DNA from: Candidatus Bathyarchaeota archaeon
Lineage (GTDB): Archaea; Thermoproteota; Bathyarchaeia; Bathyarchaeales; Bathycorpusculaceae
Assembly: GCA_963707955.1 (NCBI GenBank)
Contig: OY970176.1
Span: forward strand, 1,696,001 to 1,760,000
DNA: 64,000 nucleotides
Direction: 5' to 3'
Made by a program: the position numbers and the translations under genes. The notes below the pieces were generated by a model, which was given only the letters and a program-made list of their open reading frames with translations, did no database searches and was not told the origin of the DNA. This document shows, in pieces, positions 5,890-27,170 of this stretch (position 1 is its first letter; each line of letters opens with the position of its first letter).

Positions 5890-5944
5890 AAATAGTCCTC
5901 CGTAGCCTCTTTTTCTCTTTAAAGCCGTATTTAACGTTTATCGT

Positions 5945-7570: not shown

Positions 7571-7622
7571 CTCTGTTAGGGGCGAGTTGACCTCAAAACT
7601 CGTGCAGAGACGAAGGAAATTG

Positions 7623-8000: not shown

Positions 8001-8006
8001 GGAAGC

Positions 8007-9179: not shown

Positions 9180-9365
9180 TCAAATCACCTAGTTTTGAAG
9201 GGAAATAATCGTAGAAGAGGATGAGTATTTAACCATTTTACTTTCCCTGCTTCAAATTCATGATTCGACTCTGCATCGTAGCTTCGAAAAAGCGATGAAA
9301 AAATTAAAGAAAGGTGTGGAAAAGGGTTGATTCGAGGTGTTGCTGAGCTTGTTTGCATGCGATGC

Positions 9366-10367: not shown

Positions 10368-10463
10368 GTAATTCACCATGCAAATGTTTGCGCAATTCTT
10401 TATTAGAGTTGACTTATTACACTTACGCAATCGTCTTTGAGGAAGGTCCGAGGAACTGCAGAG

Positions 10464-11840
10464 ATGGTGGCAATAAGGAATAAGGAACAGTTGGTCAAAA
10501 ACGGCGAGACCACGCTTGACAGAAGAGCGAGGGAGCTAGCCCTCGGAAGCCTCGAAGCCGCGTTGAACGCCGTCGACCCTAAACAGATAATAGAATCAAA
10601 AGTAGTTCTGAAAGACTGCACTCTGAAAGTTGATGACTATTCCTTTGATGTGAGAGAGTTCAAGAACATCTACGTCATAGGCGGCGGAAAAGCGAGTGGA
10701 TCCATGGCGGAAGCCTTGGAGCAGGTTCTGGACGCGCGCATAACGGACGGGCTTGTGAACGTTCTCCATGAAAGCAGAAACGAGACTAGAATCATAAAGC
10801 TTCACGGGGCAAATCACCCTGTTCCAGACGAGGCCGGAGTCGAAGGAACACGAAGGATGCTTGAGATAGCTGAAGGCGCAACCGCTGATGACCTGATCAT
10901 ATGTTTGATCTCAGGCGGAGGTTCAAGCCTGATGCCTCTGCCAAGGGGAGACGTCACGCTTGCGGACAAGAGACAGGTAACGGATGCACTGCTCAAGAGC
11001 GGCGCCACAATAAACGAGGTCAACACGGTTCGAAAGCACATTTCAGACTTCAAGGGTGGTTGGCTTGCGAAGAAAGCCTACCCAGCTACGATTTTGAATC
11101 TGATCCTTTCTGACGTCATAGGTGATCCGTTGGATTTCATCGCTTCAGGCCCGACTGTTCCGGACTCTACAACGTTCAGCGAGGCCATAGGAGTTCTGAA
11201 GAAGTACGATCTTTGGGCCAAGGCTCCGTCATCTGTAAGGAAGCTCTTGTCGGACGGGGAGAAGGGTCTAGTTCCTGAAACGCCGAAAGCCGGAGATGAG
11301 GCTTTCAAGAAGGTTTACAGTTTTGTTGTTGGGAACAACCGGTTCGCAACTCAAGCGGCCTGCGGAGGTTTGAAGTCTGCCGGTTTGAACACGTTGATGC
11401 TGACTGCTATGATGGAGGGGGAAGCCAGACAAGTAGGAATCGTGCTAGTTTCGATCGCACGTGAAGCTTCGGTTTCTGGAAACCCTGTTCCAAGGCCAGC
11501 GGGCATAGTTGCAGGAGGAGAAACAACGGTGTTCGTGGTTGGGAAGGGCATAGGAGGAAGAAACCAGGAGATTGCCTTAGCAGCAGCAATGAAGCTTGAA
11601 GGTTTGGACGGTGTGGCTGTGGCTTCCTTGAGCACGGACGGCGTTGACGGTCCGACGGATGCTGCTGGAGCAGTCGTCGACGGGCAATCGCTGGCTAAGG
11701 CAAAGGAGATCGGCCTAGCTCCTGAGAAGTTCTTGGCTGATAATGATTCGTACCATTTCTTTTCTAAGCTCGGCGACCTCATCTTCACAGGACCCACGGG
11801 CACAAACGTGAACGATGTTTCGGTAATGGTCATTCTGTAA
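10464..11840 (+). CDS. Glycerate 2-kinase (MOFRL/TtuD family)
   Basis: GGGKAS, ISGGGSSL, VRKHIS.FKGG, GGETT, GGRNQE, TGTNVND. Confidence 0.93.
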   Translation: MVAIRNKEQLVKNGETTLDRRARELALGSLEAALNAVDPKQIIESKVVLKDCTLKVDDYSFDVREFKNIYVIGGGKASGSMAEALEQVLDARITDGLVNVLHESRNETRIIKLHGANHPVPDEAGVEGTRRMLEIAEGATADDLIICLISGGGSSLMPLPRGDVTLADKRQVTDALLKSGATINEVNTVRKHISDFKGGWLAKKAYPATILNLILSDVIGDPLDFIASGPTVPDSTTFSEAIGVLKKYDLWAKAPSSVRKLLSDGEKGLVPETPKAGDEAFKKVYSFVVGNNRFATQAACGGLKSAGLNTLMLTAMMEGEARQVGIVLVSIAREASVSGNPVPRPAGIVAGGETTVFVVGKGIGGRNQEIALAAAMKLEGLDGVAVASLSTDGVDGPTDAAGAVVDGQSLAKAKEIGLAPEKFLADNDSYHFFSKLGDLIFTGPTGTNVNDVSVMVIL

Positions 11841-11857
11841 GAACGGGAAGGAAAGTT

Positions 11858-12145
11858 TTGATGGTTGTAAGTGTGAAGTTCGTCGGGTCTTTTCGAGGTA
11901 TCTCGGGCAAGGACAAGCTGACACTCAAGTTTGGACGGCCTGTTTCGCTTACGGCCTTGGTAAAGAAGACTGTTGAACAGCTGCCTAAACTCAGATCTTC
12001 TCTGATCGACCCTGAGTCTGGAGAGCCTAGAAGGAGCATGTTGGTGCTCGTGAATGGAAGGGAAATCAGTGTTTTGAACGGTTTGGAGACGCGTGTGAAA
12101 GATGAGGATGAAGTGGTTTTTGTTCCCGTCGTGCACGGAGGTTGA
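11858..12145 (+). CDS. MoaD/ThiS-family ubiquitin-like protein (SAMP-like)
   Basis: Beta-grasp pattern, VLVNG, C-terminal VHGG. Confidence 0.88.
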   Translation: MMVVSVKFVGSFRGISGKDKLTLKFGRPVSLTALVKKTVEQLPKLRSSLIDPESGEPRRSMLVLVNGREISVLNGLETRVKDEDEVVFVPVVHGG

Positions 12146-12151
12146 GCATGT

Positions 12152-12940
12152 TTGAGGCTCATTGCCGTTAAGACGCGTGTCGTTAAGACTGGAGATGACT
12201 TGGTCGAGTTGGTTCTTGAGTCTTTGAAGGCTCAAGGCTTGCAGCTGGAAGATAACGATGTGTTGGCGTTGACTTCAAAGGTTGTGTCCTGTTCGGAAGG
12301 ACGCATAGTTGAGTTAAGTGAGGTGAAACCTTCGGAAGAGGCCGAGAGACTGGCAAAGGAATATTCGTTGAAGCCAGAATTTGCCGAGCTGATCCTGCGA
12401 GAAGCAGACAGAGTCTACGGAGGGGTTGAGAGAGCCGTTTTGACGCTCAAGAACGGGGTTATGGCTGCCAACGCAGGCATAGACAACAAGAACGCGCCCT
12501 CTGATTACGCTGTCCTGTGGCCCAAGGACCCTGCGGCTTCTGCAAGAGAGGTCAGAGACCGAATCAAACACAGAACTGGCAGAGATGTCGCCGTTATGAT
12601 AGTTGACAGCGGTTTGGTTCCTCTCAGAATCGGAACAACCGGCTTGGCCTTGGCAGTTGCAGGCTTCAAACCGATAAGGGACAACAGAGGCTGCAAGGAC
12701 CTCTTCGGAAAGTCCATCGTGATCACGCGACAGGCAGTTGCGGATGATCTGGCTTCAGCAGCCCACTTGCTGATGGGCGAGGCAACTGAGAAAACTCCCC
12801 TAGTGCTGATCAAGGGCGCTCCTGTGGATTTTGATGATGGCGTTTACGGCTCCGCTGACATGATGATGCCCTTCAACGAATGCATATTCATGAACACCCT
12901 GGGGACGCAATCAGGCGTAAAGAGAAAGGCCAGAGCATGA
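12152..12940 (+). CDS. cofE: Coenzyme F420-0:L-glutamate ligase family protein
   Basis: TSKVVS, ANAGIDNKN, PLRIGTTG, ADDLASAAHLLMGE. Confidence 0.85.
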   Translation: MRLIAVKTRVVKTGDDLVELVLESLKAQGLQLEDNDVLALTSKVVSCSEGRIVELSEVKPSEEAERLAKEYSLKPEFAELILREADRVYGGVERAVLTLKNGVMAANAGIDNKNAPSDYAVLWPKDPAASAREVRDRIKHRTGRDVAVMIVDSGLVPLRIGTTGLALAVAGFKPIRDNRGCKDLFGKSIVITRQAVADDLASAAHLLMGEATEKTPLVLIKGAPVDFDDGVYGSADMMMPFNECIFMNTLGTQSGVKRKARA

Positions 12941-13770
12941 TCGTTGCCCTTCATGAGGCTCCGAAAGGATTTTTCAAGACAAGCCCGCCGCACGGCAACG
13001 ACGAGCTCTTGAGGCTTGTGCGGAAAACAGCCCTGTTAGGTTTCAGGGCTATCGAAGTCGGCCCGCTTGCCGACTATCCGTCGATTGATAGTGGACTTTT
13101 GAAAGAAGTTCTTGACGAGCTGAACATGAGGAGAAGTGTGCATGTAGGAGGGCTGTTCGACGCTTCGAAGTTCGGTTCGTCCGAAGAAGAGTATGGTAGG
13201 ATGATGCACCAGGTGCGTCGTGGAGTTACGTTGGGCAGTGAGATAGGTGCAACTTTGGTGTCAGTTCACCCGCCGTTTTTTTCGATGGGAGACGAATCGG
13301 CCGAGTTGTGGTTGGAGGCGAGGGCACGTTTCTTGGGACTGCTAAAAGAGCAGGCGGAATTTGCACGTAGCAACAACATCAAGCTGGCTTTGGAATCATT
13401 CTGCTACAGGCCTTTCATCTTTGAAGGCTTGACTGATTTTGTTCGGTCTATTTCGGATTTTCCGTCGGAAGGACTCGGCGTTCTCTTGGACGCTGGGCAC
13501 TTGTACCAAGTTGGAATCAGCCTTTCCGAAGCGGTTCACATGTTTAAGGACAGACTTGTGGACGTTCACGTTCATGATGCTACGTTGGAGAAGGATTACC
13601 GAAAAGCGACTCACCTTCCACTCGGAAAGGGGAACATAGATTTTCGAAGTCTTGTCAAGTGTTTGCGAGAGGTTCATTATGATGGCTGGCTCACGTTGGA
13701 AATTCGGGCAAGTGAAGAGGAGATCGAGGAAAGCAGGAAGTATCTGGAAGGCTTACTCGCCGAGACGTGA
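12937..13770 (+). CDS. Sugar phosphate isomerase/epimerase-family TIM barrel
   Basis: LALE, LDAGH, VHVHD, HLPLGKG.IDF, YDGWLTLE. Confidence 0.85.
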   Translation: MIVALHEAPKGFFKTSPPHGNDELLRLVRKTALLGFRAIEVGPLADYPSIDSGLLKEVLDELNMRRSVHVGGLFDASKFGSSEEEYGRMMHQVRRGVTLGSEIGATLVSVHPPFFSMGDESAELWLEARARFLGLLKEQAEFARSNNIKLALESFCYRPFIFEGLTDFVRSISDFPSEGLGVLLDAGHLYQVGISLSEAVHMFKDRLVDVHVHDATLEKDYRKATHLPLGKGNIDFRSLVKCLREVHYDGWLTLEIRASEEEIEESRKYLEGLLAET

Positions 13771-14046
13771 GCTTGTGGGGCATGGTCTAGTTCTTGTTTC
13801 GCTTTTTGTCAGAGGTTACAACATTTCCTGTTGCGCGTTTTACCTCGTCTAACACACCCTACCCCCCTCCCCTAGGTTTATTCTCCAGACAGTGCTGTTG
13901 ATGCAGCTCTTGGCGGTCACTGGCGGAGTCTTTTCGCTCGTTGGGACACTTTTCTTAGCATAGAGTTCAGAACGCGCTCTCTCTATCGAATAGCTTGGCC
14001 CTGTTGCAAGAGCCACGCGCGAATCATGCGTAAAGGCTTTTAAGAA

Positions 14047-14080
14047 GTATGAATTGTGTGAAATATGCGAAAAGTGGAAT
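14047..14080 (+). promoter_or_regulatory. Putative operator of the AbrB-family gene
   Basis: Imperfect 9-bp tandem repeats GTATGAATT/GTGTGAAAT/ATGCGAAAA/GTGGAAT between the TTTTAA box and ATG 14085. Confidence 0.45.
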
Positions 14081-14084
14081 AGCT

Positions 14085-14315
14085 ATGAGTTCACGTGACG
14101 AAGGTATGTCTATTTATGGAACCGTGAAAGTAGGCGACCAAGGCCAAGTCGTCATTCCGGTTAAGGCTCGAAAAGACTTCAACATAAAGCCAGGAGACCT
14201 GTTGCTCGTGGTGGCGGGCAAGAAGAGGCGCGGAATCACGATGGTCAAGGCAGACGCGATGAGGGAGTTCGCGTCAAGAGTCCTGAAAGGTCTAGAGCAG
14301 ACCGCAGACGAGTAA
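14085..14315 (+). CDS. AbrB/MazE/SpoVT family DNA-binding protein
   Basis: YGTVKVGDQGQVVIPVKARKDFNIKPGD. Confidence 0.9.
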   Translation: MSSRDEGMSIYGTVKVGDQGQVVIPVKARKDFNIKPGDLLLVVAGKKRRGITMVKADAMREFASRVLKGLEQTADE

Positions 14316-14323
14316 CGAGCACC

Positions 14324-14809
14324 GTGTCCACGGGGCTGAATGTCATGTTCGAAAGGCGTGAACGGATGCAGAGATGGTTCAACGATGTCGTAGAGAAGTT
14401 TCGCCAGAAGGGAGCGGTGAGTCCTGACAAGGCGATGACGGCTGAGGAGCTCGGTCTTCCGCCGAGGTTCGAAGAGGCGATGAAGAGGCGTCTGGGTCGC
14501 TTAGGCGTCTTCGTGGAAGTGAACGGCAAGTACTATCTTTCAGAAGAAAGGTTGAAGCAAGTGGAAGAACTGCGATCTGCACGGGGCGGGGCATGGAATC
14601 AAGGAAGCAGAATTATGACGTTGAGACTGTTTCGGTTGGTCACTATTGTTCTCTTCGTCACTCTTTTCCTTGTGAACCTCTTCTTTCCGAGTTGGGAGCT
14701 GAGAGTAATATCCGCTGTTCTTTTGGTTGTTTGGCTAGTGATAACCATGCTGCAGATATACTTTCTCTCAAGGGTCCGAAAGAGGTACACTTCTCAACAG
14801 GTTAGCTAG
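14324..14809 (+). CDS. Hypothetical membrane protein (wHTH-like N-terminus plus 2 TM helices)
   Basis: GAVSPDKAMTAEELGL...GKYYL and two C-terminal hydrophobic helices. Confidence 0.65.
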   Translation: MSTGLNVMFERRERMQRWFNDVVEKFRQKGAVSPDKAMTAEELGLPPRFEEAMKRRLGRLGVFVEVNGKYYLSEERLKQVEELRSARGGAWNQGSRIMTLRLFRLVTIVLFVTLFLVNLFFPSWELRVISAVLLVVWLVITMLQIYFLSRVRKRYTSQQVS

Positions 14810-14999
14810 GCACGGGCGGCTATGCTGTGCTTTGCCCGTCGACGCAAGTCGTGCCATTCAACTGCACTCTGGTCTCTTTATGGAGCATAGAATCCGTCAC
14901 TTGTGACAAAGTATCTGCCAGCTTGAACCTCGCAGAGGGGAGAGAAAGCTCAAGACGACGATTATGCAGCAGTTCTCGAGGTGGGGTTGCAGCAGCTGT

Positions 15000-15783: not shown

Positions 15784-16578
15784 ATGGCTCGGCGCATAAT
15801 CACTCTAACGACTGATTTTGGCTTGAAGGACCCATACGTGGCAGAGATGAAAGCTGTCATTCTGAAAATATGCCTCGAGGCCATGATCGTGGACATATCT
15901 CATCAAGTCGAAAAATTCAACGTAAGGATGGGAGCATACGTCTTAGCGTCAGCATCTCCGTATTTTCCAGAAGGCACCATCAACGTTGCGGTTGTCGACC
16001 CTGGAGTCGGAACCAAGAGGCGTCCGCTGTGTATACAAACGGGACGCGGCTATTTCATTGGGCCAGACAACGGAGTACTTGTTCTGGCAGCGAAAGCCAA
16101 GGGGATAGAGCACGTTTACGAGTTAACGAACTCAAGGTTCATGATGCCAAACGTGTCCAACACGTTTCATGGAAGGGACATCTTCTCGCCAGCAGCAGCC
16201 CACCTAGCAAACGGAAAACTCCCGTCAGACCTTGGACGAGAAACAAGAAAGATAACGGTCCCTGAATTTGCGAAAGTCGTCAGGAGGAAGGCAGGGCTTG
16301 TTGGTGAGGTGATTCATGTGGACGACTTTGGAAACGTAATAACAAACATTGGAGAAAAAGAGCTTGCGCCGATGCGAACTATAAAGACTGTGAAGGTTAA
16401 GGTGAAAAACACTTGGTTTACATTGAGGCTCTGCAGGACCTACGGGGAAGTTGAGGCGCAGGAACCGCTAGCCCTGATTGGAAGTCACAATTTCCTCGAA
16501 CTCTCCATAAACCAAGGCAACGCATCAAAAGTGTTCAAGGTAAAGAATGGAGACAAGGTCATTCTTCATCCATCTTAA
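15784..16578 (+). CDS. SAM hydroxide adenosyltransferase (DUF62 family)
   Basis: ITLTTDFG, VVDPGVGTKR, GPDNG, TFHGRDIF, DDFGN. Confidence 0.93.
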   Translation: MARRIITLTTDFGLKDPYVAEMKAVILKICLEAMIVDISHQVEKFNVRMGAYVLASASPYFPEGTINVAVVDPGVGTKRRPLCIQTGRGYFIGPDNGVLVLAAKAKGIEHVYELTNSRFMMPNVSNTFHGRDIFSPAAAHLANGKLPSDLGRETRKITVPEFAKVVRRKAGLVGEVIHVDDFGNVITNIGEKELAPMRTIKTVKVKVKNTWFTLRLCRTYGEVEAQEPLALIGSHNFLELSINQGNASKVFKVKNGDKVILHPS

Positions 16579-17015
16579 CCTCGGCCATCAGTCCCTAGAC
16601 GGTCGTTCGATATGTCGGTTTCTTGAATATGAGTGTCCATCACCTATTTCAACCGTGGAAATCCTGCTTTTAGGCTGAGATGAGAATGTGTTCTTGACCA
16701 GAGATGTTCGAGCAAATATACTTCAACGCTACCCAGACCTTGATACTTCTCTTTCTGTCTCTATTGTCTCTCATCGTAATCGCAGGCACGATCTGGGCGA
16801 GGACAAGGCACTGAGGCTTTTCAGAAATCGAGGAAAGGCTCCAAGAAAATAGCGCATGAGAGCGCTTTTTGTTGATCCTCACAAGACGAGGATAACAATT
16901 TGGAAGCCTCCAAGAAAGCATTTACCTCCTTGGATTTTTAAACGGGCGACACCTTGCGAGAGGATGGGCAATCATTCATAATCCATGAGAGTGCAAGGTC
17001 TCTTTATCGAATACC

Positions 17016-17540
17016 TTAGACTTTGTCGCTTTTGCTCAGGTCTTTGAGCCTGTTGATTCCGTCTATTCCTTTTATGAAAGCTGCCACGCTTTTGGGCACG
17101 AGTTTTTCCCAGTTTTCGTCCTTGATCATTCTCTCTCTGATCTCGGTCGAAGAGTATACCTTTCTGTCAAAGAAACGAATGGGCTTCACCTTATATCCAG
17201 CCTCCGTGAAGAGACGACGTGTCAACGGTTCGTTAGAATAGACAACGTCAAAGTGGGGAGTATAGCCCTCTAGGGAAGAGACCCACATCATGTGCAAGTG
17301 CACGTCCGGAACGGGCACGATCCAAACGCGTATATAATCTACTTCGCATTCTTCCAACGCCTCGCGAACCATAACCAGCCTTTCTCCTGCGGTAAACGGG
17401 TTGCTGAGGTTGTGGCTGTACTGCGCGCTGCCGATGACGATTACCAGTTCGTCAACCTCTTTCAGAACTTCCTTTATCGCGCTGAGGTGCCCCAGGTGAA
17501 AAGGTTGAAACCTTCCTACGTAAAGGCCTCGCTTGTCCAT
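17016..17540 (-). CDS. nadM: Nicotinamide-nucleotide adenylyltransferase
   Basis: GRFQPFHLGH, NPFTAGER, SSTEIR. Confidence 0.95.
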   Translation of the reverse strand: MDKRGLYVGRFQPFHLGHLSAIKEVLKEVDELVIVIGSAQYSHNLSNPFTAGERLVMVREALEECEVDYIRVWIVPVPDVHLHMMWVSSLEGYTPHFDVVYSNEPLTRRLFTEAGYKVKPIRFFDRKVYSSTEIRERMIKDENWEKLVPKSVAAFIKGIDGINRLKDLSKSDKV

Positions 17541-17586
17541 CCGGATCATCTTTTTCAACATGTTATCTGTCGAAGAGAATTAACAT

Positions 17587-18174
17587 TTATCCCTGCTCAG
17601 CTTTCCTGATCACAAGCTCGACTGGAAACACTCGCAATTTCTTGCCGTCCACTGGAATTTCGCGTTCAGCAGGATAGTCACGCCTTTCGCGCTTCAGAAA
17701 AGCAAGCTTGACGTCCAAGCCGCCTCCGTACCCACCCAGTGTGAAATCCGCTCTTACAACTCGATGGCACGGGCAGACCGGTGCAAAAGGGTTTGAAGCC
17801 ATGATCTGCCCGACAGCTCGGGGTCCTCCTCCGACGGCTTTGGCAACTTCACCGTACGTGGTTACGTAACCCGGCGGTACCTTGCAAACGGTTTCGATTA
17901 CTTTCTTAGTGTACTTTGGCAGATGCTCCTCGGCCAGGGAGAAGCCGTGAGAAACGTCTTTTCCTTCGTAAATCTCCTTCAACGCTTCGATCACAGAGTG
18001 GGCAAACTCGGTTTTCTTTGGGTTTTCCGCAGAAACATGAAAGGGGACACTTTCTCTCAATCCTCGTCGAGCATTGTTCTGAGTTGAGGCAAACGTTGTC
18101 GCGTAGACAGATTCTCCTTCAAGAGCGACTCCAAACCAGACATCTCCCACCTTCTCGGTGTAAAGGCTTACCAT
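17587..18174 (-). CDS. ogt: Methylated-DNA-protein-cysteine methyltransferase
   Basis: TTYGEVA, PRAVG, PCHRVV active site. Start moved to ATG 18174 behind GAGG. Confidence 0.9.
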   Translation of the reverse strand: MVSLYTEKVGDVWFGVALEGESVYATTFASTQNNARRGLRESVPFHVSAENPKKTEFAHSVIEALKEIYEGKDVSHGFSLAEEHLPKYTKKVIETVCKVPPGYVTTYGEVAKAVGGGPRAVGQIMASNPFAPVCPCHRVVRADFTLGGYGGGLDVKLAFLKRERRDYPAEREIPVDGKKLRVFPVELVIRKAEQG

Positions 18175-18621
18175 GCTTGCTTCCTCTCGTAGAACTATCG
18201 CCGCATCAAGTTTTATTTCTTGCCCCCTCTTATTCACTCTTGCACACACACGCTCTATTAAGAAAACCTCACACACACTTGCCGAAGCGTCGTCATCCGC
18301 GCGCGGAAGGCAGATCAGGAATAGCATCATTCTCGCGGACAAATTTTTCAGCGGTAAAAAACGACGGGGTAGAGGAACGTTGCGGGCTCGCGTACCTTAC
18401 AATGTTCTGATGCACCGTATTTCTTAGCCCCTAGCGGTAGGCTCGTTTTGGTTGATCACACGAAAAAAGAATTATTTTTTTGTCGTTCAGCGCCGGCTTC
18501 TATGGTCACCGCAAACACGAACCCTACAATGGTCTCAGCAAAAAGGGGCCCCGCAGCTCTCGTGGTAAACGAGAACAGAAAAAACAGGGGATCGTCGGGA
18601 GAAGTCTCCACCTCTTTATCA

Positions 18622-18960
18622 GGTTCTGTTAACTCTTAGGCGCTTTTGAGTTTTACTGAGAGGTTTGTTAACCATCGGCGCTTTTGGCAGAGTACTGTTA
18701 AGTCCTTTGACCTAGTGGGATTTAATCGCTTTACATGACGACTTCTCTAGAAAATATAAACGTAAGTTGGGTGGTCGCCTCCACCAGTTCCGCCCTTCAT
18801 GCCTTTATCAAGAAAATATTTCTCCACGTTTCTCGCCATCGTTTCGCTGTCGGCTTTCCAATCCGCCCAATGCTCGGGATTACCGTGCTGCTCCTTGCGT
18901 TGTTTTGGGTCTTCAGTGATACCAATAGTCCAAAGTCTATAGGTTATAACCTTGTTATCA
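18622..18960. mobile_element. Truncated non-autonomous IS6-type element A1 (left end plus cargo remnant)
   Basis: Left IR GGTTCTGTTAACTCTTAGGCGCTTTT (18622-18647) directly after CTTTATCA (18614-18621). Subterminal copy at 18663-18685. Right end missing. Confidence 0.75.
18747..18959 (-). pseudogene. 5'-truncated small protein, GIY-YIG-like pattern (not in the ORF track)
   Basis: Open frame DNKVITYRLWTIGITEDPKQRKEQHGNPEHWADWKADSETMARNVEKYFLDKGMKGGTGGGDHPTYVYIF*, cut off at the IR at 18961. Confidence 0.6.
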
Positions 18961-19695
18961 GGTTCTGTTAACTCTTAGGCGCTTAAAGAAGTTTGTTAAC
19001 CGTCGGCGCTTTTCAATATTTATGGGCAAGACAGTTTCTGGAACGTACTGTACTAAAGCTTAGACTTATATTTTTCAGTTGTCACTACTAGATTAGGGAG
19101 TTCAATGGGCGAAACAAAGGAAAGAAAAATCGCTCGAAAAAGCGTCCTCATCACACTTGGAATAATCTGCGTCGTTCTTGTGGCTGGTCTCACCGTGTCG
19201 AAGCTTATCTATGGGACAAACTTCAGTTCTTACTATGATGAGTTTGGGAATGTTTCTGTTGTGAGTCGTAGCTACAATTTTTCTCCGCCAGTATCCATGT
19301 ACAATGCTATAAAAATTGCATTGGAAAGTGACCGATGGAACGCGTCCTCGCTGAGTAACATGACAGTGTGTGCTTCCCTAGAATACTGGGAATTCTGGGG
19401 CAACTCTTCAAGCAGCGGTTCCGAATTGCTTCATTACGTGACGCAACCAGCAAACGACTACTCGCCCGTCCAAGTCAACAACACAACTTATCGATACATA
19501 TGGGACATCGTTGTTGAACCCAGTGTAGGCGCACGATCAATACCTCCTCCAGGGCTTTACTGGGTTGATGCGGCAACTGGAGAAATAGTTCCGCACGGTA
19601 TACTCGCCTAAAGAACGAAGTTTCACAATCCAAGATGCCTTTGGTTAACATGGACAAAACTTTATCCATAAAAGCGCCTAAGACTTAACAGAACC
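18961..19695. mobile_element. Non-autonomous IS6-type element A2 carrying one gene
   Basis: Left IR 18961-18984. Right IR 19670-19695 matches the A1 IR at 25/26. Subterminal TGTTAACC repeats at both ends. Followed by CTTTATCA. Confidence 0.85.
19105..19611 (+). CDS. Membrane-anchored hypothetical protein with PepSY-like C-terminus (cargo of A2)
   Basis: N-terminal TM helix, YWVDAATGEIV. TTATAT box and GGAG lie upstream inside the element. Confidence 0.7.
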   Translation: MGETKERKIARKSVLITLGIICVVLVAGLTVSKLIYGTNFSSYYDEFGNVSVVSRSYNFSPPVSMYNAIKIALESDRWNASSLSNMTVCASLEYWEFWGNSSSSGSELLHYVTQPANDYSPVQVNNTTYRYIWDIVVEPSVGARSIPPPGLYWVDAATGEIVPHGILA

Positions 19696-19755
19696 CTTTA
19701 TCAGGTTCTGTAAACTTATCGGTTGGTATTTTTCCGAGAACCCAAGGGTTTTCTG

Positions 19756-20010
19756 TTATTGAAGATTTTTGAAGGCTTTAAGACATTGGTTCAGTTTACT
19801 GAGATAGTAACCAGCGATGCTTAGCAATATGAGAGCTACGATAAAAATTAAGACTTTTAAAGAGGTCTGGTCAGAAGGAAGCAGATAGCCTAGTACGATA
19901 AGAGCTATGGCACCAGCAAATAAACCAAAACATGACGCAAGACAGAATTGAAGATCAGCATTAAGTTGCGCTATCTTTATCTGTAATTTTCTATCCACAT
20001 CATCCGTCAA
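19756..20010 (-). CDS. Small 2-TM hypothetical protein (cargo)
   Basis: Two hydrophobic helices. Confidence 0.55.
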   Translation of the reverse strand: MTDDVDRKLQIKIAQLNADLQFCLASCFGLFAGAIALIVLGYLLPSDQTSLKVLIFIVALILLSIAGYYLSKLNQCLKAFKNLQ

Positions 20011-20146
20011 ATTCTCATGTCCAATGGACGATGTTCGTTTCTGTTTGCTTAAGCATTTCGCTAGGATGAGCCGATAGATGATTTTTCTTCTGTGATTGAC
20101 CTTCTGAGAATAACCTTATATTGCAATAAGCATAAACGGCTTTCTC

Positions 20147-20757
20147 ATGACAGCGATCCCGCTTTTGACAAGTTGGGCGGATGTGATTCTGATAATTCTT
20201 TTTGGTATTCCGACGGTTATAGGAGTTTACCGTTTTTTCTTATCAAGCCTAAACTCAAAATCGAAGATTGCCACACGGGAACAGATGAGAGTAATCCAGA
20301 CTTACAAGATTGCTCTTTCTATCTTCACAATGCTGGAAAAAGAACAGCTATTGGTGTCAGAATCAAGTTTAAAATAAATCAAAAATTGCCTAAAAGACCG
20401 AAACCGCCGAAGCTTGTACATGAGTTTGGAACTTTAAATCCCAATTTTCCACAGATGCTTACGCCTTTTGATCTTGATCCTGATGAAACAATTTTAGTAA
20501 GAGTATGCGAAGTGACAAAAGACCAACGTGCCATTTTCCAACTTTTTCGAGATGATCAAGTGTTCAGGATGCCAATGCTTTCTCTGGAGAGCGGACGCAA
20601 ATATGAATTGCTTTTCCGATTCGTTGGTAGAAACTTCTCAGATAGAAAAGTGTGGCATCTTTTCCTTGATCTTAAACATGAAAAACCAATGTTTGCTTTA
20701 ATTTCTAGAAACGTATTCTCCCAATATTTGTCTGACCACCTCAGGGACAGAGGCTAG
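20147..20757 (+). CDS. Membrane-anchored hypothetical protein (cargo), frameshift in the T-run 20233-20238
   Basis: TM leader of ORF 20147 joins the 20092 frame as VYRFFLIKPKLKIED if one T is added. Confidence 0.6.
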
Positions 20758-20835
20758 TTTTCGTTTTTTTCTTTCCTTTTCTAGGGCATCTACCATTTCT
20801 TGTGTCATCGATACCATTATTTTTTTCATAGGCAT
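20698..20835 (-). CDS. Ribbon-helix-helix (CopG/Arc/MetJ-like) DNA-binding protein, 45 aa (not in the ORF track)
   Basis: MPMKKIMVSMTQEMVDALEKERKKRKLASVPEVVRQILGEYVSRN: alternating beta-strand, helix, S-x-x-E-V-V-R helix. Divergent from the transposase. Confidence 0.8.
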   Translation of the reverse strand: MPMKKIMVSMTQEMVDALEKERKKRKLASVPEVVRQILGEYVSRN

Positions 20836-20844
20836 TCTGAATCA

Positions 20845-20911
20845 CTACCGATAGATACCATTAGCAACCTTTATATTTAAGACTTGCTATTATACCATTA
20901 GATACCAATAG
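20845..20911. promoter_or_regulatory. Divergent promoter/operator between the RHH and transposase genes
   Basis: Two pairs of tandem 10-bp repeats (CTACCGATAG-ATACCATTAG 20845-20864; ATACCATTAG-ATACCAATAG 20892-20911) flank TTTATATTTAA (20870-20880). Confidence 0.7.
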
Positions 20912-20921
20912 GTGTAGCAAC

Positions 20922-22070
20922 ATGATGACTGAAAACGGAAGAATGGTTCGAGGCTTCGCAATAATAGCCCAACACCAACAGATAGAACAAAAAGAAGCCC
21001 ACACATTCAAGGTGAAAAGTCAATCTGGAAACGGTCAATACGTTGTAACCAACGGCAAAGAATGGGATTGCACTTGCCCAGACCACGCATACAGAAAGGT
21101 TGTTTGTAAACACATTTTTGCCGTTCGCTTTTGGATAAGCCTCAAAGACAAAATTGACAATGCAGATGTTTTCCAGCTTTACAGAGAATTTTCAGAGGCT
21201 TCCACATGCAAGTTTTGCGGTTCAATCAACATTATCAAATGGGGTTATCGCAAAAACAGAAACGTGAAAACTCCGAGGTTCAAGTGCAAAGATTGCGGTC
21301 AAAGCTTCGTTGTTGATGAGGGGTTCGCTAGGATGCGGTTCGATCCCAAAATCGTTTCGTTAGCTCTAGACCTTTATTTCAAGGGCATAAGCCTCAGAAA
21401 GATAGTTGATCACATCAAGCAGTTTTATGGCTTGGACATTAGCCAAATGGGAGTTTTCAAGTGGTTGCAGAAGTATGGAAGAATCATTAACGCTTACGTT
21501 GATCAGCTTGAACCAGAATTGTCAAGAGTCTGGAATACGGATGAAATGAAAATCCGCTGTGGTGGAAAATGGCTCTGGTTATGGAACGTCATGGACAATT
21601 CGACCAGATACTTACTTGCGTCTCATGTTTCTGAAGGCAGAGAAGCTTCAGACGCAAGGCAAGTATGGGCAAAAGCAAAGGAAAAGGTTGGACATAACCC
21701 AGAGGTTGTTGTAACAGATGGTTTACGCTCATACGTTGAAGCTTTCAAAAAGGAGTTTTGGACTCTGAAGAATCCGAGAACAAAGCACATGGCAAACGCT
21801 GGAATAAGAGCAAGAGCCAACAACAACGTCATTGAAAGGTTGCATGGCACGATCAGAGAACGAGACAAGGTTATGAGAGGTCTAAAGACAGAACGTACAG
21901 CAAAAACAATGACAGAAACGTACAGAACATATTACAACTGCATAAGACCTCATCAAGCTTTAAATGGGAAAACTCCGGCACAACAAGCCAACATAAAGTT
22001 AGAGCTAGGAAAGAACAAATGGCTTGGATTAATCACGGCAAGCATTCGAAAAACAGAATCACATAGTTAG
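20922..22070 (+). CDS. IS6-family DDE transposase with N-terminal SWIM and Zn-ribbon domains
   Basis: CTCPD..CKH (SWIM), CKFC..CKDC, HTH GISLRKI, catalytic WNTDEM, VVTDG and NNVIERLH. Confidence 0.9.
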   Translation: MMTENGRMVRGFAIIAQHQQIEQKEAHTFKVKSQSGNGQYVVTNGKEWDCTCPDHAYRKVVCKHIFAVRFWISLKDKIDNADVFQLYREFSEASTCKFCGSINIIKWGYRKNRNVKTPRFKCKDCGQSFVVDEGFARMRFDPKIVSLALDLYFKGISLRKIVDHIKQFYGLDISQMGVFKWLQKYGRIINAYVDQLEPELSRVWNTDEMKIRCGGKWLWLWNVMDNSTRYLLASHVSEGREASDARQVWAKAKEKVGHNPEVVVTDGLRSYVEAFKKEFWTLKNPRTKHMANAGIRARANNNVIERLHGTIRERDKVMRGLKTERTAKTMTETYRTYYNCIRPHQALNGKTPAQQANIKLELGKNKWLGLITASIRKTESHS

Positions 22071-22379
22071 CAAAGCAGAGAGCAATACAACCATTTCTAG
22101 GATCATCAAGAACAGACCAATTACGGACCACTTTGCCAGCAAACTTACATAAGATAAAACTTCCTTTTTTCTTCCATAAAGACTCAGGATACACAATGGG
22201 GCTTCTATGACGAAGGTGATCGCCACAATAAAGAAACCAAATTTGAAACCGCCAGAAAGTTTTCCAACATTGCTCCATAAGCCAAAGAGTATCGCAAAAA
22301 CAATGGCAAACATGGTAGAAGATGTATTTAGAGAAATCTCCGCAAGTTTATGCCAATGGGTTAGTTCTTTCTCACTCAT
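22059..22379 (-). CDS. Small multi-TM hypothetical protein (cargo)
   Basis: Three hydrophobic helices. Confidence 0.6.
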   Translation of the reverse strand: MSEKELTHWHKLAEISLNTSSTMFAIVFAILFGLWSNVGKLSGGFKFGFFIVAITFVIEAPLCILSLYGRKKEVLSYVSLLAKWSVIGLFLMILEMVVLLSALLTM

Positions 22380-22389
22380 CTGATACGAC

Positions 22390-22836
22390 CTAGAAGGATA
22401 TGTTGATAGAATATGTGGACTTCAGCACTTGCAGTTTGTACAGTTCTACCTTGATCGTATAAAGTCCATGATCAGGAACATTGCTCTGCCAAACTATGAC
22501 GTACTCGCCAATTGGAACATTTATCCGTGAAAAATTAGCGATGGACTGACTCACTAAAGTTATGCTGATGTTTAGGACATAGGCACCTAATGAATAAGAA
22601 GGTCCAAACAAGGGAGAAATCAAAGACTTGCTAGGGGTGTCAACCCAAACATTTTGTATATCGTCTGAGTAGCCTATCTGAATGTGGATGTCTGTTTCTT
22701 TAAAGATGGGAATGATGAAAAAAATCGTCAAAGTAACCATGATCGCAAGTAGAATAGGTAACCAATTCGACCGAAATACCGACAATTGTCTGCTTCCTTT
22801 CTTATCTTCTAGTTCACCTCCTTCCACTTTTATCAC
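22390..22836 (-). CDS. Membrane-anchored beta-rich hypothetical protein (cargo)
   Basis: One TM helix plus a beta-sandwich-like tail. Confidence 0.6.
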   Translation of the reverse strand: MIKVEGGELEDKKGSRQLSVFRSNWLPILLAIMVTLTIFFIIPIFKETDIHIQIGYSDDIQNVWVDTPSKSLISPLFGPSYSLGAYVLNISITLVSQSIANFSRINVPIGEYVIVWQSNVPDHGLYTIKVELYKLQVLKSTYSINISF

Positions 22837-22863
22837 TTTCCGTTAGCGAAAAATAGAGGTGTT

Positions 22864-23076
22864 TCAAGATGAGAAGTTTCGGCGGTTCCAACCTTCTTTG
22901 CGAACAACGAATTTTATGTCCTTTCTAGGACTGAAAGCCCTTTGCAGACTTCTTGCCCTTTTCTGGGCTTGTTTCTTAGTGCGGAAGTGTGTTCCAGCAA
23001 CAATTCTGACGGGACTTCTTCCCTGTTTTCTCACAACAAGATAAGGCTTAGACGAACCGCGTCTATGATAACTCAT
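22864..23076 (-). CDS. Small, very basic hypothetical protein (cargo)
   Basis: R/K-rich 70-aa ORF, co-oriented with the two downstream cargo genes. Confidence 0.45.
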   Translation of the reverse strand: MSYHRRGSSKPYLVVRKQGRSPVRIVAGTHFRTKKQAQKRARSLQRAFSPRKDIKFVVRKEGWNRRNFSS

Positions 23077-23187
23077 TAAGGGTTCACAGAAGAAAAATCG
23101 CAATTGTGCATAGGACTCGTTTTTTGGAGAGTTGCAACCGTGGAAATCCTATTTAGCACAGAGAGGCTATGTACATAGGGGAAAGAA

Positions 23188-23895
23188 TTGGTCGATGATC
23201 GGAAGAATGTAGCAAACGAGAAGTCAGTAAACAAGTTTCTGCTTGAATTTCATCCTCAGTTTCTAAAAGCCATAAGAGATGTCTATCCGCTAGGAGTTCT
23301 AAGCTCACTGTCAATGACAATAGCTGCATTCATAACCTCATTCGCGAAGGAATCACTTGCCCTCGCACAGACATACGCTATTGCTGCCTCGCTCATGTTT
23401 TTAGCTGCCTTTTCAATCTCTCTGATTTTGAAATTGTTTCTTGCATTGGAGAAAAATGACGAAAGCCCATCTTTAGGGCTATACGCACTTATCTCTTACA
23501 TATGCACTGGTTCAGGGATAGTCTTTCTATTCCTCACGATCACCCAATTTTGGTCTGTGCTTTCCGTAGCTAGAGTCATTATCCCAGTTTTTGCGATTCT
23601 AGTAATTGGAGTGTTTCTATTGCCACTTCCTAATATACTGAATACAGCCAAAACCTTTAACCGAAAAAGTGTCTTGGTCTTGGGTTATGTAAGTGTAGTC
23701 TGCTATTTTCTCATCGTTTTTTGTATTCTCATTGGCATACTGGCATTATATGGCATAGTCTTACCTTTTTCTGCATTGTGGGTTTATTTGCTTGCGGGAA
23801 GCCTATTTCTAGGCTTGTTCTGCGTTCTCGTTATATTAGTCCTAGGCATCATACGGCTATTCAGGAGAAACAGGCAGTCACCAACCGAAAAGTAA
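23188..23895 (+). CDS. Polytopic membrane protein (cargo)
   Basis: About 6 hydrophobic helices; ends just inside the right IR region. Confidence 0.7.
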   Translation: MVDDRKNVANEKSVNKFLLEFHPQFLKAIRDVYPLGVLSSLSMTIAAFITSFAKESLALAQTYAIAASLMFLAAFSISLILKLFLALEKNDESPSLGLYALISYICTGSGIVFLFLTITQFWSVLSVARVIIPVFAILVIGVFLLPLPNILNTAKTFNRKSVLVLGYVSVVCYFLIVFCILIGILALYGIVLPFSALWVYLLAGSLFLGLFCVLVILVLGIIRLFRRNRQSPTEK

Positions 23896-24018
23896 CATCT
23901 CCATGACAGATAAGTTTACGGTATCGGCTCGGAAATATACCAACCGATAAGTTTACAGAACCCTTTATCATTAAGTTTAATAGTTTGTCCGTGCATAAAA
24001 CGGGAAAGGCGTTGTCGT

Positions 24019-24636
24019 ATGGAAAAGCAAGCGCAGAATGGTTACATGTTCATTCCAGGGGCCACAACTGTCGGCGTAATCTTCAAAGAGGGTGTTATTC
24101 TGGCCTCTGAGAAGCGGGTTTCCTATGGTTATCTGATTGTGAGCAAAACAGGGAAGAAGGTTTTCAAACTCACGGACCACATAGGCGCGGCTTGTGCTGG
24201 ACTGGTTTCAGACATGCAGGTTCTCATCAGAGAAGTCGAAGCCTACGCAAACCTGTTTAACCTGGATGTTGGCCGACCCATATCGGTCAGATCGGCCGCT
24301 AAGTTCATGTCAAGTCTACTCTTCAACCGTCGGTTGGCACCTCTCATCACGCAGACAATCGTCGGGGGAGTGGACAAAGAGGGTCCATCAATCTACTCGC
24401 TGGACCCACTGGGTTCAGTGCTTCCGGACAAGTATACGGTCGTTGGGTCAGGAACAGAGATTGCGATGGGAGTCGTTGAGGAAGGATACAAGGACAACAT
24501 GGAAATGGATGAAGCGAAGGGCCTAGTCATGAGGGCAATGAAATCTGCCGTGAGCAGAGACATAATGAGCGGAGACGGGATAGACTTTCTGATAATAACT
24601 AAGGATGGAATAAGCGAAGAATCCGTGAAATTTTAG
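24019..24636 (+). CDS. psmB: Proteasome subunit beta
   Basis: GATTVG, KKVFKL, AGLVSD, SLDPLG, GSG, RDIMSGDG. Confidence 0.93.
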   Translation: MEKQAQNGYMFIPGATTVGVIFKEGVILASEKRVSYGYLIVSKTGKKVFKLTDHIGAACAGLVSDMQVLIREVEAYANLFNLDVGRPISVRSAAKFMSSLLFNRRLAPLITQTIVGGVDKEGPSIYSLDPLGSVLPDKYTVVGSGTEIAMGVVEEGYKDNMEMDEAKGLVMRAMKSAVSRDIMSGDGIDFLIITKDGISEESVKF

Positions 24637-24712
24637 ACCTTCCATTCTCAGCAAGATTTAAACTTTGATCTCTGCACACTAGTATTCTCCGTGAAGCAGG
24701 GAGTATTCAAAA

Positions 24713-25357
24713 TTGTCGTTTCAGCTTAGCCAGAATGAAGGCAGTTTTCTCGTGAAGCTGGCACGGAAGGCCGTTGAAGACTATTTGAAAACTGGGAAAC
24801 ACACCAAGATCCCGATGGGCGTCTCAGAAGAACTGCTAAAACCATGCGGGGTCTTCGTTACCATAAACAAGCTTGAGGGTGACCAGAAAGCTCTCAGGGG
24901 ATGCATTGGCTTTCCGTACCCGACGACGTCGCTGGTTGAAGCAGTTGTAGAGTCTGCGATAAGCGCGGCAACTCAGGACCCAAGGTTTCCACCCGTTTCT
25001 CTTGATGAACTTGATCACGTTGTCTTCGAGGTAAGCGTGCTCACACCTCCTGAGACAGTGGAGGTGAAGAATCCGAAGGAATACTGCGCCCAGATCAAGG
25101 TGGGCGAAGACGGTTTGATCGTTGAAAGAGGCGTCTGCAAGGGGCTGCTCCTGCCTCAGGTGCCTGTCAAATGGGAATGGGATGAGGAGACTTTCTTGTG
25201 TCAATGCTGCCTCAAGGCTGGCTTACCTCCAGATTCTTGGCTTGTGAAAGGCACGAAGATTTACAAGTTCAGTTCCATCATTGCCGAAGAGCTTTCACCG
25301 AAAGGCGATGTGGTGATGGTAGATATGCGAAAGAAAACAAGGACCAAGCAGCTCTAA
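24713..25357 (+). CDS. AMMECR1-domain protein
   Basis: GVFVT, LRGCIG, DPRFPP, EVSVL, GLLLPQV. Confidence 0.93.
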   Translation: MSFQLSQNEGSFLVKLARKAVEDYLKTGKHTKIPMGVSEELLKPCGVFVTINKLEGDQKALRGCIGFPYPTTSLVEAVVESAISAATQDPRFPPVSLDELDHVVFEVSVLTPPETVEVKNPKEYCAQIKVGEDGLIVERGVCKGLLLPQVPVKWEWDEETFLCQCCLKAGLPPDSWLVKGTKIYKFSSIIAEELSPKGDVVMVDMRKKTRTKQL

Positions 25358-25438
25358 AGCCCTGCGCGCAAAGTGTTTCAATTGCTGTTAACGCAGAAAA
25401 TTGTCGTCATAGAGAAAACGTGAGAGACAAGATGTGGT

Positions 25439-25774
25439 CTACACGTATTTCTTGTCCCTGTCACACCACCATCTCTGGTATTGCTCAATGTACCGTAACG
25501 GCCCGCCGCACGTGGGGCAGGTCTGCGCCGTCCTCTGTGTCTCTTGAACTTGGGCTCGTGCAGGCTTCAACACTATGAAGTCTCCTGCAGCTTGGACTTC
25601 TTCCCACGATATGTCTCGACCTTCACCTTTCTTTCCCTCAACGCGCAAAGACAAGCCCATCTTGCCAACCACGAAAGCTACGTCTTTAACGGTTCCGACA
25701 GAACGACCATCAGAATCTACAACCGCCATGCCGACGAGCATGTCCTTGGTGACGGCCTTTTCCTGTTTGGCCAT
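25439..25774 (-). CDS. PRC-barrel protein with C-terminal Zn ribbon
   Basis: LVGMAVVDSDGRSVGTVKDV; CPTCGG..WWC. Confidence 0.75.
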   Translation of the reverse strand: MAKQEKAVTKDMLVGMAVVDSDGRSVGTVKDVAFVVGKMGLSLRVEGKKGEGRDISWEEVQAAGDFIVLKPARAQVQETQRTAQTCPTCGGPLRYIEQYQRWWCDRDKKYV

Positions 25775-25993
25775 ACTTATCCTCCTTTTCGTTGGTAAGT
25801 GCGTGTGCACAGCTTAATAGTTTTACCTAAACGCTCTGCGAGTCCCAAAAAAGTTAAGAATCGCTCGGCATCATTTGCGCTTAGTGGCGCATCTTTACGT
25901 CTTCGACTTTCAATAAGACTCTCAGGCTGGTCTTTGATAAACAACCATTGAGAGAGGAAATGGAGCGCAAGGCTGTTGATGGGAAGTAGCGGT

Positions 25994-27170
25994 ATGAAAG
26001 TCTATTTTGCTCCTAATGGGATCGGTTTGGGACATGTTGGAAGATGCGTGCCTGTTGCGAGGAGGCTCAGGGAAAATGGTGCTGAAGTGGTTTTTTCAAC
26101 TTATCGGGAAGGGATAGGATACGTTGAGCGCGAGAATTTTCCACTGATAAAGGCTCCTCCTATCGGGTTCCAAGTTAAACCAGACGGGAGCGTTGATTTC
26201 ACGCAGACTGCGATCAATCCGGGCCCGTTTTTGGCCACGTTCACTCTTCTAAAACAGCTCAACGCAGAAATCAGAACGATTGAGGGTTTCAAGCCTGATG
26301 TCGTTGTTTCAGACTCGCGTGCCTCACCTTTGCTGGCGGGGAGACTTTTGAGGGTTCCCGGAATCTGCATACTAAACCAGTTCCAGCCTATAGTTCCAAG
26401 GAGAAAGCGTCTTTTACTTTTGTCAAGGTTCGCAGACGCAGTTACGTTGACTCTTGTTGGTAAAATTTGGACAGGCGGAAACACAGTTCTAATCCCGGAT
26501 TTTCCGCAACCATACACGATATCAATCGGCAATCTCACCATCCCAAAACCCTACCGAAAAAATGTAAAGCTTATAGGACCGATACTCCCGACGAAGCCAG
26601 AAGAATTACCGGCTAGAGAGGAAATATGCGAGAAATTGAACCTGCCAACAGACAGGCCAATAATATTTGCCGCAGTGAGCGGCCCAACGGCAGAGAAGGC
26701 TTTTGTAACCGGAGTTCTGAGAAGAATCCTGCTGGAGTTTCCAGAAGATTATGAAATCATATTGTCCCTTGGCTATCCAAGCGCGGACAGCAAGCCTATA
26801 CGCCATGGTAATGTTACGATTTACAAGTGGGTTCCTAACCGTTTTGAATACTTGAAAGCGTGCGACTTGGTCATAGGACGCGCAGGACATGGAACGATAA
26901 CTCAGTGTATGTGCTATGGCAAGCCCATGATACTCGTACCTACACCTGGTCACACCGAGCAGATCAGTAATGCAAAGCAGGCAGAGAGTATCGGCGTTGC
27001 AAAAATTGTCTTACAGAATCGCTTGAGCAGAGAAAAACTCCTGCAGAACGTCAAAGCGACTTTGCAGGGTAAAATGGTTGAGAGAGACTGCAGAGGTTCA
27101 AGAAGAAGTCCTGAAGTATGACGGATTGGAAAACGCTGTTCAGAACGTGATTGAAGCGGCTGGAAAATAG
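25994..27170 (+). CDS. GT28/MurG-like glycosyltransferase, frameshift at about 27087
   Basis: GIGLGHVGR, RAGHGTI, HTEQISNA. The corrected tail ERAAEVQEEVLKYDGLENAV... ends at 27170. Confidence 0.85.

Follow-up and report, generated by a model that had tools for sequence, protein, structure and literature searches.

IS6-family insertion sequences (IS) are the main assemblers of bacterial resistance-gene arrays, and how they choose their targets is debated. Here, we describe a stack of two IS6-family elements, A and B, that lie side by side in intergenic DNA just upstream of psmB, a proteasome subunit gene of the archaeon Candidatus Bathyarchaeota. The stack is part of a 64,000-nucleotide stretch of DNA (contig OY970176.1, positions 1,696,001 to 1,760,000), which was analysed as a whole and which we call the window. 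One 8-bp word, CTTTATCA, stands at both outer borders of the stack and again between the two elements. We propose that an incoming IS6-type element probably took as its target the 8-bp duplication next to a resident IS6-type end and, in doing so, duplicated it again.

Passages of a 2021 review of the IS6 family give 8-bp direct target repeats as the family rule, a typical length of 700-890 bp, one passenger-carrying member (ISDsp3), and two miniature inverted-repeat transposable elements (PMC7986276). On the targeted route of IS26, cointegration is stated to require that the transposases, and likewise the DNA at the reacting end, be identical (PMC7885326), and the original flanks of the target IS are kept (PMC7986276). 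For archaea, the relevant sections of a 2019 survey list passenger-carrying transposons among the classes not detected, and mention elements in tandem at one re-used target only in the case of casposons and recombinase elements (PMC6563490). In the open-access literature, we found no description of IS6 stacks sharing a duplication, which is not proof that there is none.

Two IS6-family elements share one 8-bp target

The core of the stack is laid out as follows, in coordinates of the window.

18614..18621, + strand: CTTTATCA copy 1, the left border of the stack, with GAGAAGTCTCC as its left flank
18622..19695, unstranded: element A, 1074 bp, a non-autonomous IS6-type cargo element with 26-nt inverted repeats and CTTTATCA on both sides
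19696..19703, + strand: CTTTATCA copy 2, separating the right end of A from the left end of B
19704..23962, unstranded: element B, 4259 bp, a cargo transposon of the IS6 family, autonomous, with inverted repeats of 35 nt and CTTTATCA on both sides
20922..22070, + strand: the transposase of B (382 aa), in which a SWIM-like zinc finger and a zinc ribbon precede the DDE domain
23963..23970, + strand: CTTTATCA copy 3, the right border, with the psmB start codon 48 bp downstream

A first-pass annotation, made from the sequence alone, had read this region as a tandem stack of IS6-type elements with 8-bp duplications and different inverted repeats, built by re-use of one duplicated target. That anatomy holds. 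Each of the CTTTATCA copies at 18614, 19696, and 23963 is in direct contact with a GGTTCTGT-type end; ends of this type occur on the + strand at 18622, 18961, and 19704 and on the - strand ending at 19695 and 23962. The window contains seven copies of the 8-mer against 2.28 expected, a count that none of 100 shuffles reached, and the remaining four (18803, 26145, 34379, and 43560) have no GGTTCTGT-type end in contact. The repeats of A pair over 26 nt at 96% (18622-18647 with 19670-19695; inverted-repeat mismatch 1/22) and those of B over 35 nt at 97% (19704-19738 with 23928-23962), with a target duplication of 8/8 in both cases. The two sets of repeats diverge from each other after base 8. Copy 2 is the sole mismatch-free ACAGAACC-N8-GGTTCTGT junction in the host genome, which is a single contig of 2,346,764 bp, labelled G000 in our comparisons. 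This genome is itself derived from a sediment metagenome, and the sequencing runs that contain the sequence are freshwater sediment metagenomes, with no RNA data set listed among them.

Several features place these elements in the IS6 family. The B transposase passes the NCBIfam IS6 equivalog (transpos_IS6; 131.7 bits against a cut-off of 125) and matches Pfam DDE_Tnp_IS240 (5.8e-19), while its SWIM domain scores 19.5 bits against a cut-off of 19.6. The DE, TDG, and ER catalytic motifs are conserved across four transposases, those of B and three relatives. Duplications of 8 bp are complete (8/8) for A, for B, and for two further elements of the same genome, at genome positions 2116195-2117633 and 992796-996017. 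The terminal repeats are short, start with GG, and begin GGTTCTGT, a start typical of IS6 family ends. The simple organisation of the family, with a lone transposase gene in about 700-890 bp, is not seen here: B measures 4259 bp and its relatives 2.5-7.2 kb. Given this size, about six extra open reading frames (ORFs), and two extra N-terminal zinc domains, B is a cargo-carrying variant of the IS6 family.

The same site is empty or differently occupied in related genomes

An empty site, as implied by a re-used chromosomal target, exists in relatives. In two more distant genomes of the same genus, G005 and G002, the left flank GAGAAGTCTCC leads through a single 8-mer directly into the right flank TTAAGTTTAATAG. 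This 8-mer is related to CTTTATCA (CTTTGACA in G005 and TTGTGTCA in G002), and its presence as a single copy between the same flanks marks the CTTTATCA at the stack as chromosomal target DNA and not as part of an element. No IS end lies at the site in G008 or G004, where the left flanks are too diverged for alignment.

The three closest genomes (92-95% identity over psmB) all have an occupied site, each with a different stack. In G001, a remnant is followed by CTTTATCA, a 6570-bp A-type element, and CTTTATCA; the element encodes an IS6 transposase of its own (390 aa) together with a restriction-modification enzyme of type IIG (PADLOC 1.3e-200). The stack of G007 runs from an A-type remnant through CTTTATCA, a 4147-bp B-type element, CTTTATCA, and a 7161-bp C-type element to a last CTTTATCA, and its C-type element encodes its own transposase together with an N6-methyltransferase/specificity protein. 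In G010, a C-type end is followed by GTTTATCA. More generally, relatives of the A and B elements carry restriction-modification and PIN genes. A public search that used the unbroken 27-base right flank as its query returned seven stretches with an exact match, and 7/7 have an IS6-type end on the 8-mer.

The psmB-site stacks of these relatives comprise four types of inverted repeat, in either orientation, and the 8-mer is unchanged. B is inverted in G007 relative to G000 (1.9 kb are common at 86.7% identity, and the other cargo is different), and the orientation of the A-type element is likewise reversed between G001 and G007. Despite these inversions, the asymmetric 8-mer keeps a constant orientation at the psmB site, which fits a target duplication and not a crossover core carried by the elements.

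The remnants beside the left flank deserve separate mention. Those in contigs L011 (7442-7755), L125 (2322-2654), and L127 (7223-7555) share their interior and differ in their terminal repeats. The shared interior is a 54-aa hydrophobic ORF, found in G001 and two metagenome contigs, and element ends appear, from these remnants, to be exchangeable modules. In L125 and L127, the remnant enters a tract of alternating GCGCGCGC/CGCGCGCG octamers at its left border, as do several truncated IS6-type ends. G000 contains 455 such octamers, where its base composition predicts about 50; most of them are isolated and sit in AT-rich, apparently intergenic DNA (e.g., genome positions 10376, 49393, and 326985). 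Another contig, L129, is labelled bacterial (Candidatus Acidiferrales) yet carries the archaeal psmB-upstream site with a C-type IS6 end, and may be mis-binned.

Stacks at other loci and the 8-bp spacing of element ends

We surveyed 332 genomes of the family for back-to-back ends, using the pattern ACAGAACC-N(0-30)-GGTTCTGT. With exact 8+8 arms, 12 sites were found, seven of them with a gap of 8 bp (the others have gaps of 3, 6, 6, 11, and 23 bp); the reversed control pattern gave one site. Relaxing the arms to 7+7 gave 93 sites. Among the matches listed, the gap is 8 bp in 15/75, and the next commonest gap is 29 bp, with six sites, five of which are one conserved sequence. The excess at 8 bp has a binomial tail of 1.6e-8, or of 1.7e-5 when orthologous sites are collapsed (11/71). 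Insertion outside a resident element cannot yield a gap below 8 bp, and untargeted insertion nearby would spread the gaps over 8, 9, 10, and more bp. That the gaps peak at exactly 8 bp thus indicates that the target of the newcomer was the resident's own flanking duplication.

Tandem stacks, which the first-pass annotation had described from one locus, recur across the family genomes. The 8-mers differ between stack loci. Outside the psmB site, the distal IS6-type end is also flanked by the junction 8-mer in 8/14 junctions examined (in G236, G187, G300, G265, G284, G201, G384, and G380). At the TAAAGTTT junction of G300, distal copies occur on both sides (7/8 and 8/8), and G384 has three TTGAATAT junctions. 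Each stacked element in other genera has a full-length transposase of the same clade, and no other protein is common to the stacked elements compared. Between stacked element types, the transposases are 40-48% identical.

Some further loci came to light in these scans. In another genus, a second hot spot holds different IS6-type stacks in two species (L049 of G187, 5685-9954, and L122 of G380, 9978-14990), with the same flank caatattaataaatcccacgg and the near-identical 8-mers TTGAAGCG and TCGAAGCG. At L067 9970 and L068 2822 (G267), IS6-type ends stand back to back 6 bp apart, and the L068 pair looks genuine; a sub-lineage with another stagger, or a later deletion, may account for these pairs. 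When viral contigs were scanned for the same repeat pattern, seven stretches matched, none of them with a paired repeat. Two contain homologues of the B transposase (L133 12863-13507 and L137 385-1236, at 45% and 54% identity), which could reflect transfer vehicles between cells or cellular DNA filed as viral.

A model of insertion beside a resident end

The three identical 8-mers can be read as one chromosomal target that would have been duplicated twice. The first element would have inserted with the usual IS6 8-bp duplication, and the second would have inserted exactly into one of the 8-bp copies abutting the resident terminal repeat, copying it again. In such an event, the incoming transpososome would capture the resident IS6-type end. 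One 3'-OH of the newcomer would attack the bond at the resident repeat/flank boundary, which IS6 transposase activates at its own ends, and the other end of the newcomer would attack the opposite strand 8 bp further out, as in an ordinary insertion. Gap repair would then leave the order target-new-target-resident-target, with the 8-mer restored on both sides of the newcomer. Attack at the flank of an IS has a precedent, which the first step proposed here follows. Homing of this kind would be set by position next to an IS6-type end, not by the sequence of the 8-mer, and would work across different repeats and between transposases as far apart as those found here.

More tentatively, an archaeal IS6 clade could possess a dedicated end-homing mode, in which any resident end marks its flanking 8-bp duplication as the next target; we regard this wider proposal as possible but doubtful. 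If it were true, heterologous cargo (restriction-modification, PIN, and membrane proteins) would be gathered into expandable chromosomal arrays at safe sites, and the identical 24-bp junctions would permit precise loss of modules. It would also amount to a DDE-driven path to gene-cassette islands, and to a third IS6 mode beside copy-in, which forms cointegrates, and targeted conservative transposition.

Several observations weigh against insertion beside a resident end. Such a mode departs from the characterised behaviour of the IS26 family, both in the identity requirement and in the retained flanks, and its chemistry and order of arrival are reconstructed from end states. The four psmB-site stacks lie in close relatives (92-95% flank identity) and may all have been inherited from a single ancestral one, and therefore do not count as four separate events; between G000 and G007, B has diverged to about the same degree as the flanks (86.7% versus 90.7-92% identity). 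For 6/14 junctions at loci other than psmB, the ≤10 kb examined contain no distal 8-mer copy (G300 AATCTACA, G267, G344, G393, G403, and contig 20 of G001). The spacing at 7+7 arms is known for 75 of the 93 sites, and a few true-looking IS6 end pairs stand 6 or 11 bp apart. Lastly, two flanks within the psmB-site stack of G000, at the inner junction of element A and at its outer border, match at 10/12 positions, and a junction 8-mer of G236, CTGTTTCA, resembles CTTTATCA.

Alternative explanations

Conservative exchange of cassettes would offer a different route to the same layout. Circles carrying the 8-mer between abutted ends would be spliced in without a new duplication, resembling IS26 translocatable units or integron cassettes. 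The ACAGAACC-8 bp-GGTTCTGT junction does look like a recombinase core, with inverted arms and an asymmetric spacer; insertion beside a resident copy is possible for the IS26 family, and between identical 24-bp junctions modules could be excised precisely. We nevertheless consider such exchange improbable. The 8-mer is chromosomal, single in empty sites, and variable between loci. Since isolated copies have locus-specific duplications, a circle from elsewhere would import a foreign 8-mer, and elements of variable orientation beside an 8-mer of fixed orientation are equally at odds with this route. No tyrosine or serine recombinase domain was detected in the 10 ORFs of the window and 18 ORFs of relatives that were scanned. 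The targeted route of IS26 requires identical ends, whereas the neighbours here differ (transposases 40-48% identical), and contigs, which drop rare forms, contain no joints or circle junctions.

It could also be that no targeting is involved, and that the spacer upstream of psmB is a tolerated landing place where chance and selection have accumulated elements and kin have inherited the stack. The location suits this view, as the core promoter of psmB begins just downstream of the site and no gene is disrupted, and so does the phylogenetic pattern, in which the four occupied genomes are close kin and distant ones are empty. Under such a scenario, however, spacings of 8, 9, and 10 bp should be equally frequent, yet 8 bp dominates across the family. 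The same 8 bp have, moreover, been re-used at least two times in G000 and three in G007, with further re-use at other loci and in other genera. Untargeted accumulation is thus unlikely to explain the stacks.

The first-pass annotation had favoured a target preference for TTATCA, that is, an IS6 lineage that recognises a TTATCA-like word, with newcomers landing on CTTTATCA because of its sequence. The three identical 8-mers, the related TGTTATCA at the inner junction with 12-nt flanks equal at 10/12 positions, CTGTTTCA in G236, and the 7/7 occupied public stretches all speak for such a word. When the 8-mers flanking other copies were tabulated, they were shared within stacks, but outside stacks they were unrelated. 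Eight elements or element types that stand outside stacks are flanked by unrelated 8-bp duplications (GTCTACCA, AAGGTCTG, CATGCCCA, ATTCCGCT/ATTCAGCT, CTTTTCGG, and GCATGCCA/C), including elements with the same or related repeats, such as the one flanked by GTCTACCA at 2116195-2117633. Stacks at other loci use other words, e.g., TTGAATAT, TAAAGTTT, CGCTTCAA, CTCATCAG, and CTGCATAG. Other A-type left ends in contigs of the source community, from the same samples, have different flanks, and four copies of CTTTATCA in the window are free of elements. The unrelated duplications thus leave the TTATCA preference unsupported, and we judge recognition of a word to be very unlikely as the explanation of the stacks. 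Some weak, local sequence bias may exist, to go by the inner junction and CTGTTTCA in G236. Under insertion beside a resident end, what is re-used would be the position next to that end and not a sequence word.

One motif does recur outside stacks. GCATGCC is common to the duplications of two unrelated IS6-type elements, one in G000 (genome 992796-996017, where CATGCCCA is preceded by G) and one in G001 (L119 6575-8947, GCATGCCA/C), by chance or through a weak target bias.

Read-level evidence consists of the assembly contigs of one study. Contigs from two further samples of that study span the left, inner, A/B, and right junctions with 0-1 differences, which bears out the arrangement described in the first-pass annotation. 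None of them skips an element, and they contain no joints, empty allele, or circle junction; contigs drop rare variants and are therefore silent on the absence of rare forms. A mis-joining of repeats, conceivable for a sediment metagenome and for repeats that share their first 8 bases, is extremely improbable, because every junction is bridged in these two other samples and the same junction sequence occurs in independently assembled relatives.

Element A and its inner junction

Element A has an internal structure of its own.

18622..18952, unstranded: A1, a left-end remnant with a terminal repeat, a subterminal repeat, and an orphan ORF
18756-18950, - strand: the orphan ORF of A1, an ORF stump without a start codon
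18953..18960, + strand: the inner-junction 8-mer TGTTATCA, adjoining a second A-type left end
18961..19695, unstranded: A2, 735 bp, with an A-type left end, a 168-aa ORF, and an A-type right end
19105-19611, + strand: the passenger ORF of A2, 168 aa, with only a weak, sub-threshold match to DUF5592

Element A has IS-type ends, a target duplication, and a passenger gene, and there is no transposase among its ORFs; it thus has the features of a mobile insertion cassette (MIC) or non-autonomous IS. Both of its ends match the 6570-bp autonomous element of G001, and G000 contains no transposase closer than 47.6% to the A-type transposase of G001. A second A-type cassette of 1439 bp, at genome positions 2116195-2117633, carries an S-adenosylmethionine (SAM)-methyltransferase gene and is flanked by GTCTACCA.

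A fourth junction with a related 8-mer had been noted within A, and TGTTATCA at 18953-18960 indeed abuts an internal A-type left end. This end (18961-18984) pairs with 19672-19695 over 24 nt at 96%, and the flanks of A2 are unequal (TGTTATCA versus CTTTATCA, 6/8 identical). Extended to 12 nt, the inner-junction flank ACCTTGTTATCA and the outer flank ACCTCTTTATCA are equal at 10/12 positions, with a chance expectation of about 4e-5. A1 is the stump of an older copy within element A, and two histories fit the junction. Either A2 inserted into an older A1, after which recombination between A-type right ends deleted the remainder, or a deletion from A1 reached a former stack junction. Neither Pfam nor NCBIfam gave a match for the orphan ORF of A1, and 10 genomes of the same genus contain no homologue.

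A duplicated flank was considered as the source of the inner junction and is ruled out. Comparison of the interior of A1 (18648-18960) with the left flank (18343-18621) gave no homology beyond the 8-mer (score 16 versus 17.8 +/- 2.2 in shuffles), so a duplication of the flank does not account for the junction.

Partial copies of the terminal repeats lie a short way inside both elements. In A, TTTGTTAACC.TCGGCGCTTTT is found about 40 bp inside each left end (18659-18685 and 18987-19013), and in B, ACAGATAAGTTTAC and ACCAACCGAAAAGT are found 37-59 bp inside the right end (23880-23919). These subterminal repeats may be extra transposase-binding sites.

Cargo of element B and neighbouring genes

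The remaining ORFs of B and the chromosomal genes on either side of the stack are as follows.

17587..18342, - strand: left neighbour gene, methylguanine-DNA methyltransferase-like, chromosomal and outside the stack (Pfam DNA_binding_1, 2.6e-27)
19756-20010, - strand: passenger ORF of B
20092..20757, + strand: 221-aa ORF adjoining the transposase, 69% identical to an ORF in the B-type element of G007
22059-22379, - strand: passenger ORF of B
22390-22836, - strand: passenger ORF of B
22864-23103, - strand: passenger ORF of B
23188-23895, + strand: passenger ORF of B, hydrophobic
24019..24636, + strand: psmB, proteasome subunit, the chromosomal right neighbour (Pfam Proteasome, 5.8e-55)

B is present as a single copy in G000. 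Its passenger load amounts to about six ORFs in about 3 kb, and none of the passenger ORFs has a match in Pfam, NCBIfam, or PADLOC. A 79-aa ORF of B is 50% identical to a counterpart in the G007 B-type element. The left neighbour gene is 90.7-93.9% identical in G001 and G007. Neither an Rfam search of 16000-26000 at a permissive threshold nor a tRNA scan of the window gave a match; the stack site is thus not a tRNA or noncoding RNA attachment site.

Comparison with known systems

IS26 arrays, as far as published accounts describe them (Harmer and Hall; Varani et al. 2021), are alike in transposase family, in insertion at the flank of a resident member, and in having passenger genes interspersed with IS ends. 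They are unlike the present stack in that IS26 units share identical, directly oriented IS copies, whereas each unit here has both of its own ends, can take either orientation, and has its flanking 8 bp duplicated again. Targeted conservative transposition of the IS26 type does not describe the stack either: the 8-mer is present in three copies, the repeats differ, and the transposases are 40-48% identical.

Other IS families also insert at IS ends. There, too, a transposase-bound or transposase-like end serves as target, and elements abut. In contrast to the present stack, these families proceed by copy-out-paste-in with circle junctions, the partners are typically copies of the same IS, and no cargo arrays have been described. 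Their spacers measure 2-3 bp. B and its larger relatives are akin to transporter IS (tIS), being IS of 2.5-7.2 kb with passenger genes. A and the 1439-bp methyltransferase copy are akin to mobile insertion cassettes, being transposase-less and bounded by IS ends.

The first-pass annotation had also likened the locus to an integron. The likeness stands insofar as discrete gene modules are gathered at one chromosomal place, with short identical junctions that would allow precise loss. It fails in that the modules bring their own transposase, their borders are IS6 repeats, and their cargo lies on both strands. A DDE transposase is the only recombinase among the 10 ORFs of the window and 18 ORFs of relatives, and no integrase was seen. 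Likewise, no attC- or attI-like sites or common promoter were seen at the stack, where the attC model was not run. The comparison with integrons is a loose one, an analogy of outcome only.

Tandem casposons are, in the relevant sections of the 2019 survey, an archaeal parallel in layout: they have terminal inverted repeats, and a target duplication lies between tandem neighbours at one site (PMC6563490). They differ in using a Cas1 integrase and a sequence-specific site at the ends of ef-2 or tRNA genes (PMC6563490), whereas the present elements encode a DDE transposase and the 8-mer they re-use varies by locus.

Set beside these systems, the elements described here add archaeal DDE transposons whose cargo extends over several kilobases and includes a restriction-modification enzyme of type IIG. 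They also add stacks of diverged elements, in several archaeal genera, in which the target duplication is renewed at each junction. Such stacks point to a form of targeting that would read the position of an IS end, cross between diverged partners, and end in an ordinary staggered insertion, and neither of the characterised IS26 routes predicts them.

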